Position numbers and translations under genes: made by a program
The notes under the pieces: generated by a model
The model's database searches: none
What the model saw: the letters and a program-made list of their open reading frames with translations, nothing else
Told to the model about the DNA's origin: nothing
NCBI GenBank assembly: GCA_041168925.1
Contig: JBEEJY010000006.1
Location: 2,859-66,858, forward strand
Length of the DNA: 64,000 nucleotides
DNA from: Candidatus Parcubacteria bacterium
GTDB taxonomy: Bacteria; Patescibacteriota; Minisyncoccia; Phycocordibacterales; UBA2100
Direction: 5' to 3'
Shown: piece after piece, positions 14,180 through 62,814 of the stretch
How the letters are laid out: every line of letters begins with the position of its first letter
Position numbering within the stretch: the stretch's first letter is position 1

Positions 14180-15145
14180 CTACAGCTGCGCGATGATCTT
14201 GGCAATCTTCGCCGAATCGTGCCGCGCTTTGTCGCTTCGCGAAGCCAGATTTTCAACGACTACGTGTTTCGCGCACTCTTTGAGAGCCGCGTCGCACACC
14301 ATCGGATACTTCTTTTCCTTTTCATACGCTTCGAGAAGCTTCGAGTCCATGGACGCCCCGTTGCAGATGACGTAATCGAATGTCTTCAGTCCGCTATAGC
14401 GTAATAGCTCGCGGACCATATCGGACGCCTTGAATCCGTGCGTCTCTCCCCACTTCGTCATGAGATTGCATACGACGACGGTCTTGCCGCGCGACGCCTT
14501 GAGCGCGCGTGGCATGCCATTTGTCAGCAGCGTCGGAATCAGCGATGAGTAGAGATCTCCCGGTCCGATTACGATCGTATCCGCGAGATGAATCGCGTCC
14601 GCGGTTTCTTTATAGATTTTTGCCGGCGGATCTAAAAAGACTTTGGCGATACGCAACGCGCCGTCGTGCTTCGGGATATCGATATTGGTTTCGCCCACGA
14701 TCTCCTGCCCGTTCTCAAGGATCGCATGCACGTGGGAGTGATCGAGCGAGACGGGGAGGATTTTGCCGGTAATGTTGAGCAGTTCGGACGCCTTGCGAAT
14801 TCCCTGGATTTCGCCGCCATAAATCGAAGCGAGTGCGACGAGAAAGAGATTACCGAAACTATGGCCGTCGAGCGAGCCGCCACCGTTTTCAAACCGATAC
14901 TCAAAAAGCTCCCGAAGAATCGCAGCCTTCTTCTCATCGGCGAGTGCGAGCATTCCGCGACGCACATCGCCCGGCGGCAGTATGCCGAACTCGTCGCGCA
15001 ATTTCCCGGCCGAACCGCCGGAATCAAAGGAGGTAAAAACCGCCGTGATATCGAGCGGAAACTCCTTGAGCCCGCGCAAAAGCGTGTAGCCGCCGCTCCC
15101 TCCGCCTATTCGGACCACCCGTTTTCGAGCCATTCCGGACAGCAT
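14180..15145 (-). CDS. YvcK/CofD-family protein (UPF0052; gluconeogenesis factor / 2-phospho-L-lactate transferase-like)
   Basis: N-terminus VVRIGGGSGGYTLLRGLKEF with ITAVFTSFDSGGSAGKLRDE, and 321 aa, are characteristic of the CofD/YvcK family. Confidence 0.8.
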   Translation of the reverse strand: MLSGMARKRVVRIGGGSGGYTLLRGLKEFPLDITAVFTSFDSGGSAGKLRDEFGILPPGDVRRGMLALADEKKAAILRELFEYRFENGGGSLDGHSFGNLFLVALASIYGGEIQGIRKASELLNITGKILPVSLDHSHVHAILENGQEIVGETNIDIPKHDGALRIAKVFLDPPAKIYKETADAIHLADTIVIGPGDLYSSLIPTLLTNGMPRALKASRGKTVVVCNLMTKWGETHGFKASDMVRELLRYSGLKTFDYVICNGASMDSKLLEAYEKEKKYPMVCDAALKECAKHVVVENLASRSDKARHDSAKIAKIIAQL

Positions 15146-15185
15146 TGCACAAATCGGCGAAGCTTGCTACCATCGCGTTACAACT

Positions 15186-15300
15186 GAATATCGTATCAAG
15201 AGCGTGGGGAGAGTTCCGGCTCGACGAACCACCGGCAGCGTGCTCCGAGTAGCATCGAGGAGTAATGTGCCTCTTCCGGCCCTCCGGGAAGATACACATT
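15186..15300 (+). promoter_or_regulatory. Candidate SAM-I (S-box) riboswitch in the metK leader
   Basis: TATCAAGAGCGTGGGGAGAGTTCCGGCTCGACGAACCACCGGCAGC resembles the S-box consensus AUCAAGAG-GG-GGAGGGA-CUGGCCC-GAUGAA-CC-GGCAACC. A possible P1 closing segment GATAC lies near 15292 opposite CGTATC near 15192. The element is on the same strand as metK and immediately upstream of it. Coordinates are approximate. Confidence 0.45.
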
Positions 15301-15308
15301 ATCCATAA

Positions 15309-15333
15309 TCTCCCGTCGGGAGATATTTTGTTG
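15309..15333 (+). terminator. Intrinsic terminator-like hairpin plus U-tract between the riboswitch candidate and the metK start; putative expression platform
   Basis: TCTCCC-GTC-GGGAGA is a perfect 6-bp stem with a 3-nt loop, followed by TATTTTGTTG, about 18 nt before the metK ATG at 15351. Confidence 0.45.
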
Positions 15334-15350
15334 CTAGAACGATATACCGT

Positions 15351-16403
15351 ATGTTCCATTCACTAGAACGATACACGACGGAATCAGTCACCTCTGGGCA
15401 TCCGGACAAAGTGTGCGATCAGATATCGGATGCGATCCTCGATGCGTGCCTCGCTCAGGATCCGTACTCGCGCGTTGCCGTCGAGAGTTTCGGCAGCCAC
15501 GGCACGCTGATGCTCGGGGGCGAAGTAAAGACAAAGGCGAAAGTCGATTTCAAAAGAATAGCGCTGGGCGTGTATCGCGATATCGGTTACACCGACAAGC
15601 TCAAAGTTTTCAATACGATCGCGAAGCAATCTCCCGACATCGCAATGGGAGTTGATACCGGAGGCGCGGGCGATCAGGGCATCATGTACGGTTACGCAAC
15701 GAACGAGACGAAAGAGTATCTTCCGAAGGGAGTCGTGCTCGCGCACGCGCTCGCTCGGCGTCTCGAGAGACTGCGCCGCAACGGCACGCTGAAGTGGCTG
15801 AAGCCGGACGGCAAAACCCAAGTGACGATCTCGAAAGGCAAGGTAATCACCGCGTTGTGCTCCACTCAGCACGACAAGAAGGTTTCGCAGGAAGAAATCC
15901 GCAAGCAGCTCATCAAACATCTCTTCATTCCCATACTCGGCTCCGTGAAAGACGTCGAGATTCTTGTAAATCCTACCGGGCAGTTCATTCTCGGCGGTTT
16001 TGCCGCTGATGCCGGATTGACGGGCCGCAAGATCATGGTCGACACCTACGGCGGCGTCATGCCTCATGGAGGCGGCGCATTTTCCGGCAAGGATGCGACG
16101 AAGGTGGATCGCTCCGCGGCATACATGTGTCGATTCGTCGCCAAAAATCTCGTCGCCAACGGTTACGCGAAAAAGGCGCTCGTGTCGGTCGCCTATGCGA
16201 TCGGGCGGGTCGATCCCGTGATGGTGGAAGCATTCGACGAGAAGGGTCGCGATCTCACGTCGATCGTCAAGAAGCATTTCGATTTCCGACCTCGCGCTAT
16301 CATCGAACGCCTTGTATTGAACCGCCCGATCTACCGTGAGACCGCAGCCTACGGGCATTTCGGCGTCCAGGGTCGCCCGTGGGAGAAGATTATCAAGATA
16401 TAA
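15351..16403 (+). CDS. metK: S-adenosylmethionine synthetase
   Basis: N-terminus ...[26 protein letters not shown] is the bacterial MetK signature, followed by [19 protein letters not shown]. At 350 aa it is a little short. Confidence 0.95.
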   Translation: [350 protein letters not shown]

Positions 16404-17463: not shown

Positions 17464-19314
17464 CTACTCGACTGTAACCGATTTCGCGAGATTACGCGGG
17501 CGATCCACGTTGAGGCCTTTTCCTTTGGCGAAGTAGTAGGCAAAAAGCTGTAGGGGTACGACGTTGAGAATCGGCGAGAGCATCTCGAGAGTCTTGGGGA
17601 CGTACATCACGTCATCGGCAACTGTTCGAATTTCCTCGTCCCCTTCGCTCGCAAGCGCGATAACGGGCCCTTTGCGCGCCCTGATTTCGTGAATGTTCGA
17701 AATCATTTTTTCGTACATCGAATCTTTCGGGACGATCGCGAGCGTCGGGAATCGCTCATCGATCATGGCGATCGGGCCATGCTTCATCTCACCGGCTCCG
17801 CAGCCCTCCGCGTGAATGTAGGAGATCTCTTTGAGTTTGAGCGCGCCTTCGTATGCGACCGGATAGTTGTATTTGCGCCCGAGGTAGAGAAAATCACGGA
17901 CGTTTGCATACTTTTTCGCAAGTGCTTGTATGTGATCCTTCGTGTCGAGCACGCGCTGCAATTTCGATGGAAGCTGTTTCAGCTCATCGGCTATTTCTTT
18001 TCCTTGTTTTTCAGTCATCGTGCGCTGGCGACCGAGGAAAAGCGTCAATAGCGCGAGCGCGCTCAACTGCGAAACGAACGCCTTGGTCGAAGCAACGCCG
18101 ATCTCCGGTCCCGCGTGATTGTACACGCCTGCATCGGTCTCGCGTGCGATCGTGGAGCCTACGGTATTGACGATGCCAAGCGTGAGAGCGCCGCGCCGCT
18201 TCCCTTCGCGTACGGCTTCGAGCGTATCGAGCGTCTCTCCGCTTTGAGATATCGCAAGCACAGCCGTGCGCTCGTTGATGACCGGCGCGCGATAGCGAAA
18301 CTCGCTGCCAAGTTCGACTTCGACCGGAATGCCCGCATGACCTTCGAGCATGTACTCGCCCACCAGCCCGGCATAGTAGGCAGTGCCGCACGCGACGATA
18401 ATGATTCGATCGATCTTCTCAAGCTGTTTCGCGACGCTCTCCAGCCCGCCGAGTTTCGCTGTGCCCGTCTCGACGCGCAAGCGACCGCGCAGCGTGTCTT
18501 CGACAACCTGCGGACCCTCCATAATCTCCTTCAACATGAAGTGTTCGTAGCCGCCCTTTTGCGCTTGTTCCGGACTCCAGTCGATCTCGGTCGGCGAACG
18601 ATGTACTTTCTTCGCATCAAGCTTGAAGACGGAATGTTTCTCCGGGGTGATAACCGCGATCTCGCCGTCTTCAAGGAAAACCACCTTCTTGGTGTGCGGC
18701 AAAATAGGCGAGGGATCTGATGCGATGAAATGCTCGCCGTCTCCGAGTCCGAGCACGATGGGAGAACCCATTCGCGCGGCGATGATCTTGTCCGGCTCGC
18801 CGCGATACTGAAGCGCAATACCGTACGTGCCGTGAATGTCGTTCAGCGCTTTGAGTGCGGCTTTTTCGAACTGCTTCTCGGTCTTCAAATGCTCTTCGAC
18901 GAGATGCGCCAAGACTTCCGTATCGGAATCCGATCTGAACGTGTGACCTTGTTTCTCAAGCTTGCGTTTCAGCTCCTGGAAATTTTCGATGATGCCGTTG
19001 TGTACGATCCAGAGTTCGCCTTTGCAATCAGAGTGTGGATGAGCGTTTTTTTCGTTCGGTTCGCCATGTGTTGCCCAGCGCAAGTGCGCAATCCCGCTTC
19101 TTCCCGCATAATCCTTGGGCAATCGCTTGCGAAGTTCGGCGACAGCACCGGGCGTTTTGATACCGCCGCCTTCGGGCGTGAACACCCCGGCGGAATCGTA
19201 TCCGCGATACTCAAGGCTCAACAGTCCGTCGAGAAGAACCCTGCCCGCCTCTTTTCCCTTGTTGCCTGTGTAGGCAAAGATGCCGCACATACCGTAAGAG
19301 GAACACTGTAGCAC
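17464..19314 (-). CDS. glmS: Glutamine--fructose-6-phosphate aminotransferase (isomerizing)
   Basis: N-terminal MCGIFAYTG (Cys2 nucleophile of the Ntn amidotransferase), 616 aa, two SIS domains, and the C-terminal ...KSVTVE. Confidence 0.95.
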   Translation of the reverse strand: MLQCSSYGMCGIFAYTGNKGKEAGRVLLDGLLSLEYRGYDSAGVFTPEGGGIKTPGAVAELRKRLPKDYAGRSGIAHLRWATHGEPNEKNAHPHSDCKGELWIVHNGIIENFQELKRKLEKQGHTFRSDSDTEVLAHLVEEHLKTEKQFEKAALKALNDIHGTYGIALQYRGEPDKIIAARMGSPIVLGLGDGEHFIASDPSPILPHTKKVVFLEDGEIAVITPEKHSVFKLDAKKVHRSPTEIDWSPEQAQKGGYEHFMLKEIMEGPQVVEDTLRGRLRVETGTAKLGGLESVAKQLEKIDRIIIVACGTAYYAGLVGEYMLEGHAGIPVEVELGSEFRYRAPVINERTAVLAISQSGETLDTLEAVREGKRRGALTLGIVNTVGSTIARETDAGVYNHAGPEIGVASTKAFVSQLSALALLTLFLGRQRTMTEKQGKEIADELKQLPSKLQRVLDTKDHIQALAKKYANVRDFLYLGRKYNYPVAYEGALKLKEISYIHAEGCGAGEMKHGPIAMIDERFPTLAIVPKDSMYEKMISNIHEIRARKGPVIALASEGDEEIRTVADDVMYVPKTLEMLSPILNVVPLQLFAYYFAKGKGLNVDRPRNLAKSVTVE

Positions 19315-19330
19315 GATTCTTGATGACTGT

Positions 19331-20326
19331 TTAATGAATATCGGCCAGCACGGAATCGGCTATCGACGCGCGGAAGCGATTGATCGCGGAGTCTACCGAA
19401 TACGCATCGGCCGGTCGTTTTGGATAGGTCCGATTCGATAGGATGACGAGCCCCGCACTGCGTCCCGCATCGACGATAAGCGACGTGCCCGTGAACCCGG
19501 TCTTTCCGAACGTATCTTTCGCACACCGTACTCCCATGAACCATGGCTGCGCGACTTGCCAGCCAAGCCCTTTTCGAGCTCCCGCGAAGATCGCCGGAAA
19601 CCGCCCCGAGAGAAGCGCGCTTAGGAAATTGAGCACGTCGGGTGCCGTCGAGAACAATCCCGCGTGGCCGACGGCGCTGTGTGCGCGCGCGAAGACCCGC
19701 GCGCTCTCGTCGTGCACGATACCGCGCACTTCCTTACCATCAAATACCTCCGTCGGCGCGCAGCGCTTTATGTCGCCGGGGAAAAAAGTAGTATCGCGCA
19801 TGCCAAGCGGTCCGAAAAAATACGCATCGGCAAGATCGGGTATAATCTTCCCGCTCACTCTCTCAAGCGCTGCCCCCAGTACGTATGCGGGAATATTGGA
19901 GTACAGTCCCTCTCCGGGCGGGCCGTCAAAACCTCGCTCGAATATATAGGCACGCATCGCTTCAAACGTCGAGTAGCGCAATTTCGAGAGTTGCGGCCCG
20001 CGCACCCGGTAGCGCAAAAGGTCCTCGACGGTCGCTCCATGATCATGCTGCAATTCCGGAACGTATTGCTTGATCGGATCGCTCAAACGCAGCTTCTTTT
20101 CTTCGATCATCTGCAGAGCGAGGCTCACAAGCGGTATTGACTTCGTGACCGACGCCATGTCGTAGATCGTATCCGCTCTAATTTCGGCCGAATCACTCTC
20201 GTATGTGAACCGTCCGAAAGGGTGCACCGTTTTCTCCTCGCCGGGCCGAATGATTCCGATCACGCAACCGGGAAAGACTTGTTCTTCGATCGCGCGTCTT
20301 GCGATCTGTGCGATTTTCTTATGCAT
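19331..20326 (-). CDS. Serine hydrolase of the beta-lactamase/transpeptidase family (class C beta-lactamase-related)
   Basis: The S-x-x-K active-site motif (MASVTKSIPL) lies in an N-terminal region typical of the Beta-lactamase family, in a 331-aa protein. Confidence 0.7.
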   Translation of the reverse strand: MHKKIAQIARRAIEEQVFPGCVIGIIRPGEEKTVHPFGRFTYESDSAEIRADTIYDMASVTKSIPLVSLALQMIEEKKLRLSDPIKQYVPELQHDHGATVEDLLRYRVRGPQLSKLRYSTFEAMRAYIFERGFDGPPGEGLYSNIPAYVLGAALERVSGKIIPDLADAYFFGPLGMRDTTFFPGDIKRCAPTEVFDGKEVRGIVHDESARVFARAHSAVGHAGLFSTAPDVLNFLSALLSGRFPAIFAGARKGLGWQVAQPWFMGVRCAKDTFGKTGFTGTSLIVDAGRSAGLVILSNRTYPKRPADAYSVDSAINRFRASIADSVLADIH

Positions 20327-44823: not shown

Positions 44824-44897
44824 TTTCAATCCATGCCGGGAGACAGATTCGAACTGTCGACCTAGCGCTTATGAAACGCTCGCTCTAACCGACTGAG
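44824..44897 (-). tRNA. tRNA-Met (anticodon CAU); elongator Met or lysidine-modified Ile2 cannot be distinguished
   Basis: Reverse complement GCCGGGA-TA-GCTC-AGTCGGTTA-GAGC-G-AGCGT-TTCATAA-GCGCT-AGGTC-GACAG-TTCGAAT-CTGTC-TCCCGGC-A folds as a cloverleaf. It has a paired G1-C72 and no run of three G-C pairs in the anticodon stem, so it is not an initiator. Confidence 0.75.
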
Positions 44898-45178
44898 CTA
44901 TCCCGGCCTCACGGGAAATATAGTTGATTTGGGTAAAAACTGCCAGTACACTTTCACTATGTGGGGGATTATGCTGCAGATCAATTCGGCCTGTTTCATC
45001 ATAACGAGCGTCTACCTCGTCTATTCGTTTGGCACTGCGATCATGATGTGGGCGTGGAAGCCGTTTGGCGTAGCGCTCGTGCTCTTTATTTTCTTTGCAC
45101 TTGCCGAAATCGCGCTCGCCGCGATCGCGGAGCCGTGAATTTCATTGCGCCGCTTCTGCGCGTGTAGTACAGTACGAA

Positions 45179-62726: not shown

Positions 62727-62814
62727 GGAGAGGTGGCAGAGCGGTCGAATGCAGCACACTGCTAATGTGTTGAGCCTCAAAAGGGCTCCGAGGGTTCGAA
62801 TCCCTCCCTCTCCG
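62727..62814 (+). tRNA. tRNA-Ser (anticodon GCU)
   Basis: GGAGAGG-TG-GCAGAGC...-GCACA-CTGCTAA-TGTGT with a long variable arm (TGAGCCTCAAAAGGGCTCCG), then GAGGG-TTCGAAT-CCCTC-CCTCTCC-G. The 88-nt class II structure carries anticodon GCT. Confidence 0.8.

Follow-up and report, generated by a model that had tools for sequence, protein, structure and literature searches.

The closest described systems to the RNA element analyzed here are the SAM-I (S-box) riboswitches (Rfam family RF00162), known from the yitJ and metK leaders of Bacillus subtilis and from metF of Thermoanaerobacter tengcongensis (PDB 2GIS). In the T. tengcongensis structure, S-adenosylmethionine (SAM) is contacted by A6, U7, G11, C44, A45, U57, G58, A87, and U88; of these, A45-U57 reads the adenine, G11 and C44-G58 the methionine moiety, and U7 and U88 the sulfonium. 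In characterized SAM-I RNAs, the adenines A24 and A61/A62 form base triples that flank the pseudoknot. The SAM pocket lies at the P1/P3/J1-2 interface and includes A46 (PMC3064774), and an A62-G23-C29 base triple has been listed (PMC3764141). Here, we analyzed the leader of metK, the gene for S-adenosylmethionine synthetase, in a 64,000-nucleotide (nt) stretch of a Candidatus Parcubacteria genome (assembly GCA_041168925.1, contig JBEEJY010000006.1, positions 2,859 to 66,858), which is referred to as the window. Sequence comparison and structural modeling indicate that this leader is very probably a SAM-I riboswitch that acts as a transcriptional OFF switch on metK. The coordinates of its parts are provided in Table 1.

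The element occupies the 205-nt intergenic spacer between metK and a divergent gene of the cofD/yvcK family, and its aptamer ends 52 nt before the metK start. An initial annotation, made from the letters of the window, had proposed a SAM-I riboswitch and a terminator at this place. All the strings that it quoted were located in the spacer, including ATCAAGAGCGTGGGGAGAGTTCCGGCTCGACGAACCACCGGCAGC at positions 15195 to 15239 of the + strand (the span that runs from ATCAAGAG to GGCAGC), and the P1 closing strand GATAC that it had suspected was found together with a 5' partner, GUAUC. The search of the leader with the SAM-I covariance model that it had called for returned RF00162 on the expected strand and in the expected position. 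The gathering score of RF00162 is 44.4 bits. A permissive cmscan of the 301-nt leader gave a match of 40.2 bits that covers model positions 1 to 108 (E = 5.7e-8), and in a search of both strands of the whole window with 4227 families this match (E = 1.2e-5) was the sole meaningful one apart from transfer RNAs (tRNAs). The Rfam scan of the whole window at default gathering thresholds returned six tRNAs and nothing else; the lack of a riboswitch in this output is due to the threshold and not to an absence of the element. A gathering threshold is a convention of annotation rather than a property of the structure, and the RF00162 match, taken as a comparison of sequence with model, is statistically real and formally sub-threshold. 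The SAM-IV (RF00634) and SAM-I/IV (RF01725) models had no match in the leader in the permissive cmscan up to an E value of 10, in which RF00162 alone was returned.

To place the element among its relatives, MetK homologs were drawn from GTDB contigs, with one genome per species. The 28 best MetK relatives (~350 amino acids [aa], 88 to 56% identity) all came from metagenome-assembled genomes (MAGs) of Patescibacteria, or candidate phyla radiation (CPR), labeled Kaiserbacteria, Parcubacteria, Moranbacteria, Taylorbacteria, and similar, which agrees with the CPR-type origin that the initial annotation had considered. Of the CPR genome loci, 26 have DNA upstream of metK, and in 22 of them an RF00162 match immediately precedes the gene; 18 of these 22 elements reached the gathering score, with a maximum of 69.8 bits. 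A clade-specific covariance model (R1), built from the SAM-I elements of CPR genome metK loci with hand-written SAM-I helices, scored 73.6 bits on the window and detected the element in 28 further CPR-like metagenome metK loci, none of which had been used in building it. SAM-I on metK is thus the rule in the sampled CPR, which are host dependent and have reduced genomes (50 of 61 loci, 26 from genomes and 35 from metagenomes), and at this frequency, the retention of a riboswitch by a CPR genome is less remarkable than had been supposed. No SAM-I match was found in the genome loci L012, L013, L021, and L024 or in the metagenome loci L089, L092, L098, L100, and L117, all of which have upstream DNA; in L024, a tRNA lies directly upstream of metK instead. 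SAM-I in CPR metK leaders is accordingly common but not universal, and the window element is orthologous to those of the other CPR metK leaders.

The full-model alignment (positions 1 to 108) arranged the helices P1, P2 (a/b), P3, and P4 in the canonical order of the four-way junction. P4 consists of the pair U15275-A15290 and of CCC (15280 to 15282) paired with GGG (15286 to 15288) around the loop UCC. The P2 internal loop, GGA/GACGAA, is compatible with a kink-turn (K-turn) when compared with the consensus gGA/uaUGAA, and the GA on both strands is conserved in the clade, as far as sequence alone can tell. In a plain MAFFT alignment (A1), several sequences, that of the window among them, were out of register at their 3' ends; the model-guided alignments A2 and A3 were used instead. 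For A3, which contains 52 CPR sequences, the pseudoknot was added to the structure before pairs were counted. In this alignment, which like A2 is fitted to the model, 86.4% of the cells held standard pairs, as compared to 77.3% after shuffling (0 of 500 shuffles reached the observed value) and 33 to 49% when the 3' partners were slid. Pairs changed on both sides numbered 26 of 34, against 16.9 in the shuffled alignments (0 of 500), and the covariation score was 0.319, against 0.160 (0 of 500). A smaller set of 23 sequences gave the same covariation picture.

Across the 52 sequences, P2 (P2a/P2b) was paired in 93 to 99% of the cells, with compensatory changes in every pair, P4 in 96 to 98%, again with compensatory changes, and P3 in 81%. 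The inner five pairs of P1 were formed in 86 to 100% of the sequences (43 to 50 of the 50 with letters at these positions), whereas most of the clade does not form the three outermost P1 pairs that the Rfam model contains, which leaves a P1 of approximately 5 bp. Four pairs of distal P3 were poorly aligned (23 to 77% paired) and were excluded as support. All four pairs of the pseudoknot between L2 and J3/4 covary, with 95% of the cells paired, and this pseudoknot exists in 11 fully complementary CPR versions, including CUGG/CCAG, CCGG/CCGG, CUAG/CUAG, UUGG/CCAA, and CUGA/UCAG. The first of these is the majority form, and the window has CCGG/CCGG. Compensation specific to the window was seen at two places, namely, in P2a (GUGG/CCAC versus GCGG/CCGC in the closest relatives) and in the pseudoknot (CCGG/CCGG versus CUGG/CCAG). 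RNAalifold, run on the plain MAFFT alignment and hence independent of the model, arrived at P3, P4, and the pairing of L2 with J3/4, again with compensatory changes. Covariation thus supports every helix of the predicted aptamer as well as its pseudoknot.

All nine SAM-contact nucleotides are present in the window, and they are 94 to 100% conserved in the 52 CPR sequences: C44, A45, U57, and G58 are invariant (52/52), as is G11 (50/50). By the structural criteria that can be read from the sequence, the metK leader element is a SAM-I riboswitch.

Downstream of the aptamer, the initial annotation had recognized the layout of a classic transcription-attenuation OFF switch on metK and had predicted an antiterminator pairing between the P1 3' strand and the 5' arm of the terminator. 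Both were supported here. The hairpin and U-tract exist, but the stem that had been given as 6 bp is 7 bp long (ATCTCCC-GTC-GGGAGAT at 15308 to 15324, followed by ATTTTGTTG); the 18-nt gap reported before the metK ATG (15351) is correct when measured from the end of the U-tract. Near-identical terminator hairpins were found in L008, L082, and L081, and the AUUUUGUUG tail is the same in L008 and the window. The antiterminator strand CGGGAAGAU (15285 to 15293) pairs with AUCUCCCG (15308 to 15315) through 8 bp with A15290 bulged (-7.8 kcal/mol as a hairpin), and this helix is incompatible with P4, P1, and the terminator. The mutually exclusive folds that had been looked for thus both exist in computation, with a conserved design. 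Their energies, which include neither pseudoknot nor ligand terms, are balanced, with -31.2 kcal/mol for the aptamer plus terminator and -27.8 kcal/mol for P2, P3, and the antiterminator.

The conservation of this design was assessed by a duplex test in 22 CPR leaders, in which the last 18 nt of the aptamer were paired with the nascent downstream RNA. In 21 of the 22 leaders, the best duplex involved the 5' arm of the aptamer-proximal hairpin, and a U-run follows that hairpin in ~20 of them. In the window, the duplex had -10.6 kcal/mol (z = -3.96; 0 of 300 shuffles as good), and the P value was below 0.05 in 11 of the 22 leaders. A similar competition of the aptamer with the antiterminator, and a similar role for the pseudoknot, have been described for SAM-I (PMC3064774). 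The P2 5' strand GGGGAGA (15206 to 15212), which pairs with the 5' arm of the terminator in the minimum free energy (MFE) fold of the nascent RNA of 125 to 128 nt, was also considered as a candidate antiterminator and was dropped, as inspection by eye showed that it is not complementary in L001 and L008.

Candidate promoter elements precede the aptamer (Table 1). The hexamers are weak, with 8/12 in the best register (TGCACA-16-TACCAT) and 7/12 as TTGCAC-17-TACCAT. TTGCA(C/T), a spacing of 16 to 17 nt, and TAnnAT or TATACT were observed, with an unchanged distance to the aptamer, in L001, L081, L082, L004, L007, L008, and L095, and a segment similar to ACAAYTGAAT lies between the -10 hexamer and P1 in L008, L082, L003, L004, L005, L007, L023, L095, and L115. 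These similarities point to a putative metK promoter at this place, with a probable transcription start near 15180. The conserved TTGCAY/TAnnAT spacing could possibly be used as an example of a CPR promoter.

In the mechanism that we propose, transcription would probably start near 15180, and the nascent RNA would fold into the four-helix SAM-I aptamer (15193 to 15295) with its L2/J3-4 pseudoknot. At high SAM levels, the ligand would be bound in the P1/P3/J1-2 pocket and P1 and P4 would be locked, which would make CGGGAAGAU unavailable and let the hairpin form, so that RNA polymerase would terminate at the U-tract, ahead of metK. At low SAM levels, P1 and P4 would not be locked, and CGGGAAGAU would capture AUCUCCCG once the latter is transcribed; the antiterminator would then take the place of the terminator, and metK would be transcribed. 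SAM would thereby feed back negatively on the synthetase that makes it. The analysis shows the match in sequence and structure, the covariation, the conserved contact nucleotides, and the mutually exclusive pairings with their conservation in the clade, and from these we infer the start site, the promoter, termination itself, and the binding of SAM.

A number of observations weigh against this reading, and they concern both the expression platform and the aptamer. As to the former, a scan of the leader for consensus sigma-70 promoters passed no site, and the U-tract is interrupted (UUUUGUU). The interrupted U-tract, along with the poor U-tracts of L001 and L004, would fit a SAM-binding aptamer whose output is not termination but an effect on the initiation of translation or on the stability of the mRNA; the P1 5' strand might, for instance, pair over a long range with the stretch that immediately precedes the start codon. 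In the MFE fold, AUAUCGU (15188 to 15194) can indeed pair with ACGAUAU (15339 to 15345) beside the ATG, and no clear Shine-Dalgarno sequence is visible before metK. However, most relatives have a hairpin and a U-run behind the aptamer, and it is the 5' arm of this hairpin, and not the start region, with which the aptamer 3' strand covaries. Furthermore, ACGAUAU is located within a window-specific repeat that is absent from relatives, and the long-range pairing would act in the wrong direction: the P1 strand would be free at low SAM levels, and the start would then be blocked. We therefore consider such an output improbable and retain transcriptional control as the preferred reading.

As to the aptamer, the match fails the Rfam gathering criterion for SAM-I (40.2 versus 44.4 bits), P1 has only 5 pairs, and P4 is limited to 3 plus 1 pairs around a 3-nt loop. 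The aptamer is not obtained when the leader is folded for MFE, which prefers an extended hairpin around P4 together with the pairing of 15188 to 15194 with 15339 to 15345. Thermodynamic prediction is dominated by an alternative 6-bp hairpin (15274 to 15279 with 15284 to 15289) that arises from the self-complementarity of CCGG (15276 to 15279 versus 15284 to 15287); it competes with the pseudoknot and the canonical 3-bp P4, can sequester the J3/4 strand of the pseudoknot, and could belong to the fold adopted without ligand. The pocket residue A46 is a G in the window (15238), which is the case in only 4 of the 52 sequences (window, L004, L104, and L093). In addition, the L2 position equivalent to A24 is a U, and J3/4 reads UCU instead of AAU, so that A61/A62 are absent. 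In the mutant M3, which carries A24U, ligand-induced collapse was weakened (PMC3064774). We rejected the MFE result as a case against a riboswitch, since nearest-neighbor folding ignores the pseudoknot, tertiary contacts, and the ligand and the long-range partner belongs to the window-specific repeat.

The sub-threshold score, the loss of A24 and A61/A62, the G at A46, and the minimal P4 with its competing local hairpin could also be signs of decay, in which case the leader would hold a relic, a descendant of SAM-I that no longer binds SAM, with a constitutive, partly efficient terminator or a stabilizing hairpin. Against such a relic speak the intact set of nine ligand-contact nucleotides, the lineage-specific compensation that keeps the helices paired (U-A versus C-G in P2a and the CCGG/CCGG pseudoknot), and the intact and significant antiterminator complementarity. 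Moreover, the changes in L2 (A24) and J3/4 are common to L001, L004, L008, and L081, and because the MetK proteins of these relatives are only 71 to 88% identical, the changes appear to be maintained and not to reflect decay. A relic is consequently unlikely in our view. The low Rfam score is explained by the change of three to four conserved adenines (A24, A61/A62, and A46), the short P1, and the 3-bp P4; the element is of an ordinary and well-known kind, with peripheral nucleotides that were changed in its lineage.

The rarity of G at A46, a residue of the binding pocket (PMC3064774), and the altered peripheral triples would also be compatible with a shifted ligand preference or affinity, toward S-adenosylhomocysteine (SAH), another adenosyl compound, or much weaker SAM binding, brought about by A46G and rewired tertiary contacts. 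Set against this are the regulated gene, metK, whose logical signal is SAM, and the close relatives L001, L002, and L008, which have A46 and otherwise the same element. The nucleotides that read the adenine, the methionine moiety, and the sulfonium in PDB 2GIS are also unchanged. A change of ligand is very unlikely, and SAM remains the expected effector of the proposed OFF switch.

The shared deviations may have another meaning. We consider it possible, albeit doubtful, that the window, L001, L004, L008, and L081 represent a CPR-specific SAM-I subtype in which the adenine triples of A24 and A61/A62 have been replaced, with compensation by an all-Watson-Crick 4-bp pseudoknot and, in some members (window and L004), with A46G. 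If true, this subtype would differ measurably in folding or ligand response, and it would be missed systematically by standard Rfam annotation, with the result that riboswitches in ultra-small genomes would be under-counted.

Table 1. Predicted parts of the metK leader and the flanking genes, in window coordinates
Feature	Position	Strand	Basis or remark
cofD/yvcK-family gene, divergent neighbor, outside the switch	14180..15145	-	PF01933, 276.7 bits
Candidate -35 hexamer TTGCAC, overlapping the divergent cofD-like gene at its start codon	15145..15150	+	Recurrence in relatives
Candidate -10 hexamer TACCAT, ending 17 nt before the aptamer as in relatives	15168..15173	+	Positional conservation
Conserved segment ACAACTGAAT immediately 5' of P1, probable start region	15180..15189	+	Similar segment in relatives; putative function
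SAM-I (S-box) aptamer, full-length RF00162 match; paired core 15193-15295	15190..15298	+	Rfam covariance model
P1 5' strand GUAUC, pairing with 15291-15295; holds A6 and U7	15193..15197	+	RF00162 alignment, covariation
J1/2 AAGA, including G11 at 15200, putative SAM contact	15198..15201	+	G11 in 50/50 sequences
P2: P2a, 15202 and 15204-15207 with 15229-15233; P2b, 15211-15213 with 15220-15222; loop UUCCGG	15202..15233	+	Alignment, covariation
Pseudoknot 5' strand CCGG in the P2 loop, pairing with 15276-15279	15216..15219	+	Covariation
P3 and SAM-binding bulge: GGCA-G-CG with UG-UGCC; distal stem GCUCC/GGAGU, tandem G-A	15234..15271	+	Alignment
J3/4 pseudoknot 3' strand CCGG (15276-15279) and minimal P4	15275..15290	+	Alignment, covariation
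Antiterminator 5' strand CGGGAAGAU: P4 3' strand, J4/1, and first 3 nt of P1 3' strand	15285..15293	+	Folding, duplex
P1 3' strand GAUAC; holds A87 and U88 of the SAM pocket	15291..15295	+	Alignment
Candidate intrinsic terminator hairpin AUCUCCC-GUC-GGGAGAU, 7 bp, 4 G-C	15308..15324	+	-9.7 kcal/mol
U-tract UUUUGUU after the terminator stem	15326..15332	+	Sequence
metK, S-adenosylmethionine synthetase gene, 350 aa, compact CPR form; regulated gene	15351..16403	+	Open reading frame and Pfam

The flanking genes named in the initial annotation, yvcK-like and metK, were borne out by Pfam, which identified CofD (PF01933) on the one side and the N-terminal, central, and C-terminal MetK domains (PF00438, PF02772, and PF02773) on the other. 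L001 has the cofD-like neighbor with 79% identity, and the two genes are linked in L002, L004, and L008 as well. The metK start codon of the window is spanned by a direct repeat, CTAGAACGATAYAC, whose copies (15334 to 15347 and 15363 to 15376) are 13/14 identical and 29 nt apart. The second copy codes for residues 5 to 9 (LERYT), and the upstream copy is able to pair with the P1 5' region in the MFE fold. The repeat was not found in any close relative, and sharing of an 11-mer of this kind occurred in 3 of 2124 background windows; it is probably a small lineage-specific duplication.

Further observations were made on relatives and elsewhere in the window. Two aptamer-like R1 matches lie in tandem upstream of metK in L093 (291 to 394 and 481 to 560, with 40.9 and 23.8 bits), which may be a tandem SAM-I arrangement or a degenerate second copy. 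The aptamers of L082, L083, L086, L088, and L108 carry insertions of 42 to 76 nt at the position of the P2b stem, loop, and pseudoknot strand. In the Kaiserbacteria relative L002, a glmS ribozyme (RF00234, 52.6 bits) is present just downstream of metK (2689 to 2882, + strand). The window also contains glmS near metK on the opposite strand (17464 to 19314, - strand), and no ribozyme was detectable in its leader (19250 to 19800) at E values up to 10. Downstream of metK in L003 (3840 to 3912), unrelated microRNA-precursor models matched on both strands with ~41 to 42 bits, well below their thresholds, which suggests a long near-perfect palindromic hairpin. Sub-threshold matches of plastid untranslated region families at 62727 to 62814 and 44833 to 44907 of the window are antisense to or overlap tRNA genes and were rejected as artefacts of tRNA-like sequence in the models.

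The window element does not change the knowledge of SAM-I riboswitches as such. Because SAM-I on metK is widespread in the sampled CPR, these bacteria appear still to sense and regulate their own SAM pool, despite few annotated protein regulators. The searchable literature on CPR, Patescibacteria, and Parcubacteria contained no description of native riboswitches, and a short survey could close this small gap; one Parcubacteria paper states just that a riboflavin (flavin mononucleotide [FMN]) riboswitch was not detected. The above-threshold orthologs would probably be caught by routine Rfam-based annotation. The case also illustrates that, in poorly sampled phyla, diverged members fall below curated score thresholds and are missed. 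Natural variants at A24, the J3/4 adenines, and A46, positions that are important in mutational studies, offer a means to test which share of the tertiary scaffold SAM-I can do without. Finally, expression-control parts are needed for the emerging genetics of Patescibacteria (PMC11665869), and native riboswitches could serve as such.

In comparison with the RF00162 systems of B. subtilis and T. tengcongensis, the window shares the P1-P4 junction, a P2 loop that is compatible in sequence with a K-turn, the L2/J3-4 pseudoknot, and the conserved pocket nucleotides AUCAAGAG, GCA, GUGC, and AGAU, as well as a predicted terminator/antiterminator platform that uses the P1 3' strand and a location upstream of metK, the classic S-box target. 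It differs from them in a score 4 bits under the curated threshold, a P1 of 5 bp, a P4 of 3 bp with a triloop, the replacement of A24 in L2 by U, of the J3/4 adenines by pyrimidines, and of A46 by G, a pseudoknot of four Watson-Crick pairs, and a host that belongs to the Patescibacteria and not to the Firmicutes. The SAM-IV and SAM-I/IV riboswitches (clan CL00012) resemble the window in the pocket core (P1, P3, and J1/2) and in biological role but have another scaffold, which lacks a P4 where SAM-I has one and gains a pseudoknot with the 3' tail. The window has the SAM-I arrangement: its P4 in the SAM-I position is backed by covariation, and the SAM-I model was the best clan match kept at the site. 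The SAM-I elements of other CPR metK leaders (L001 to L028 and L081 to L116) agree with the window in position, helices, and antiterminator design and resemble it in promoter spacing, and the terminator and tail of L008 and L082 are almost identical to those of the window. Many of these relatives, in contrast to the window, exceed the Rfam threshold, with scores of up to 69.8 bits, and have kept A24 and an AAU J3/4, and some have P2 insertions of 42 to 76 nt or long P3/P4 extensions.

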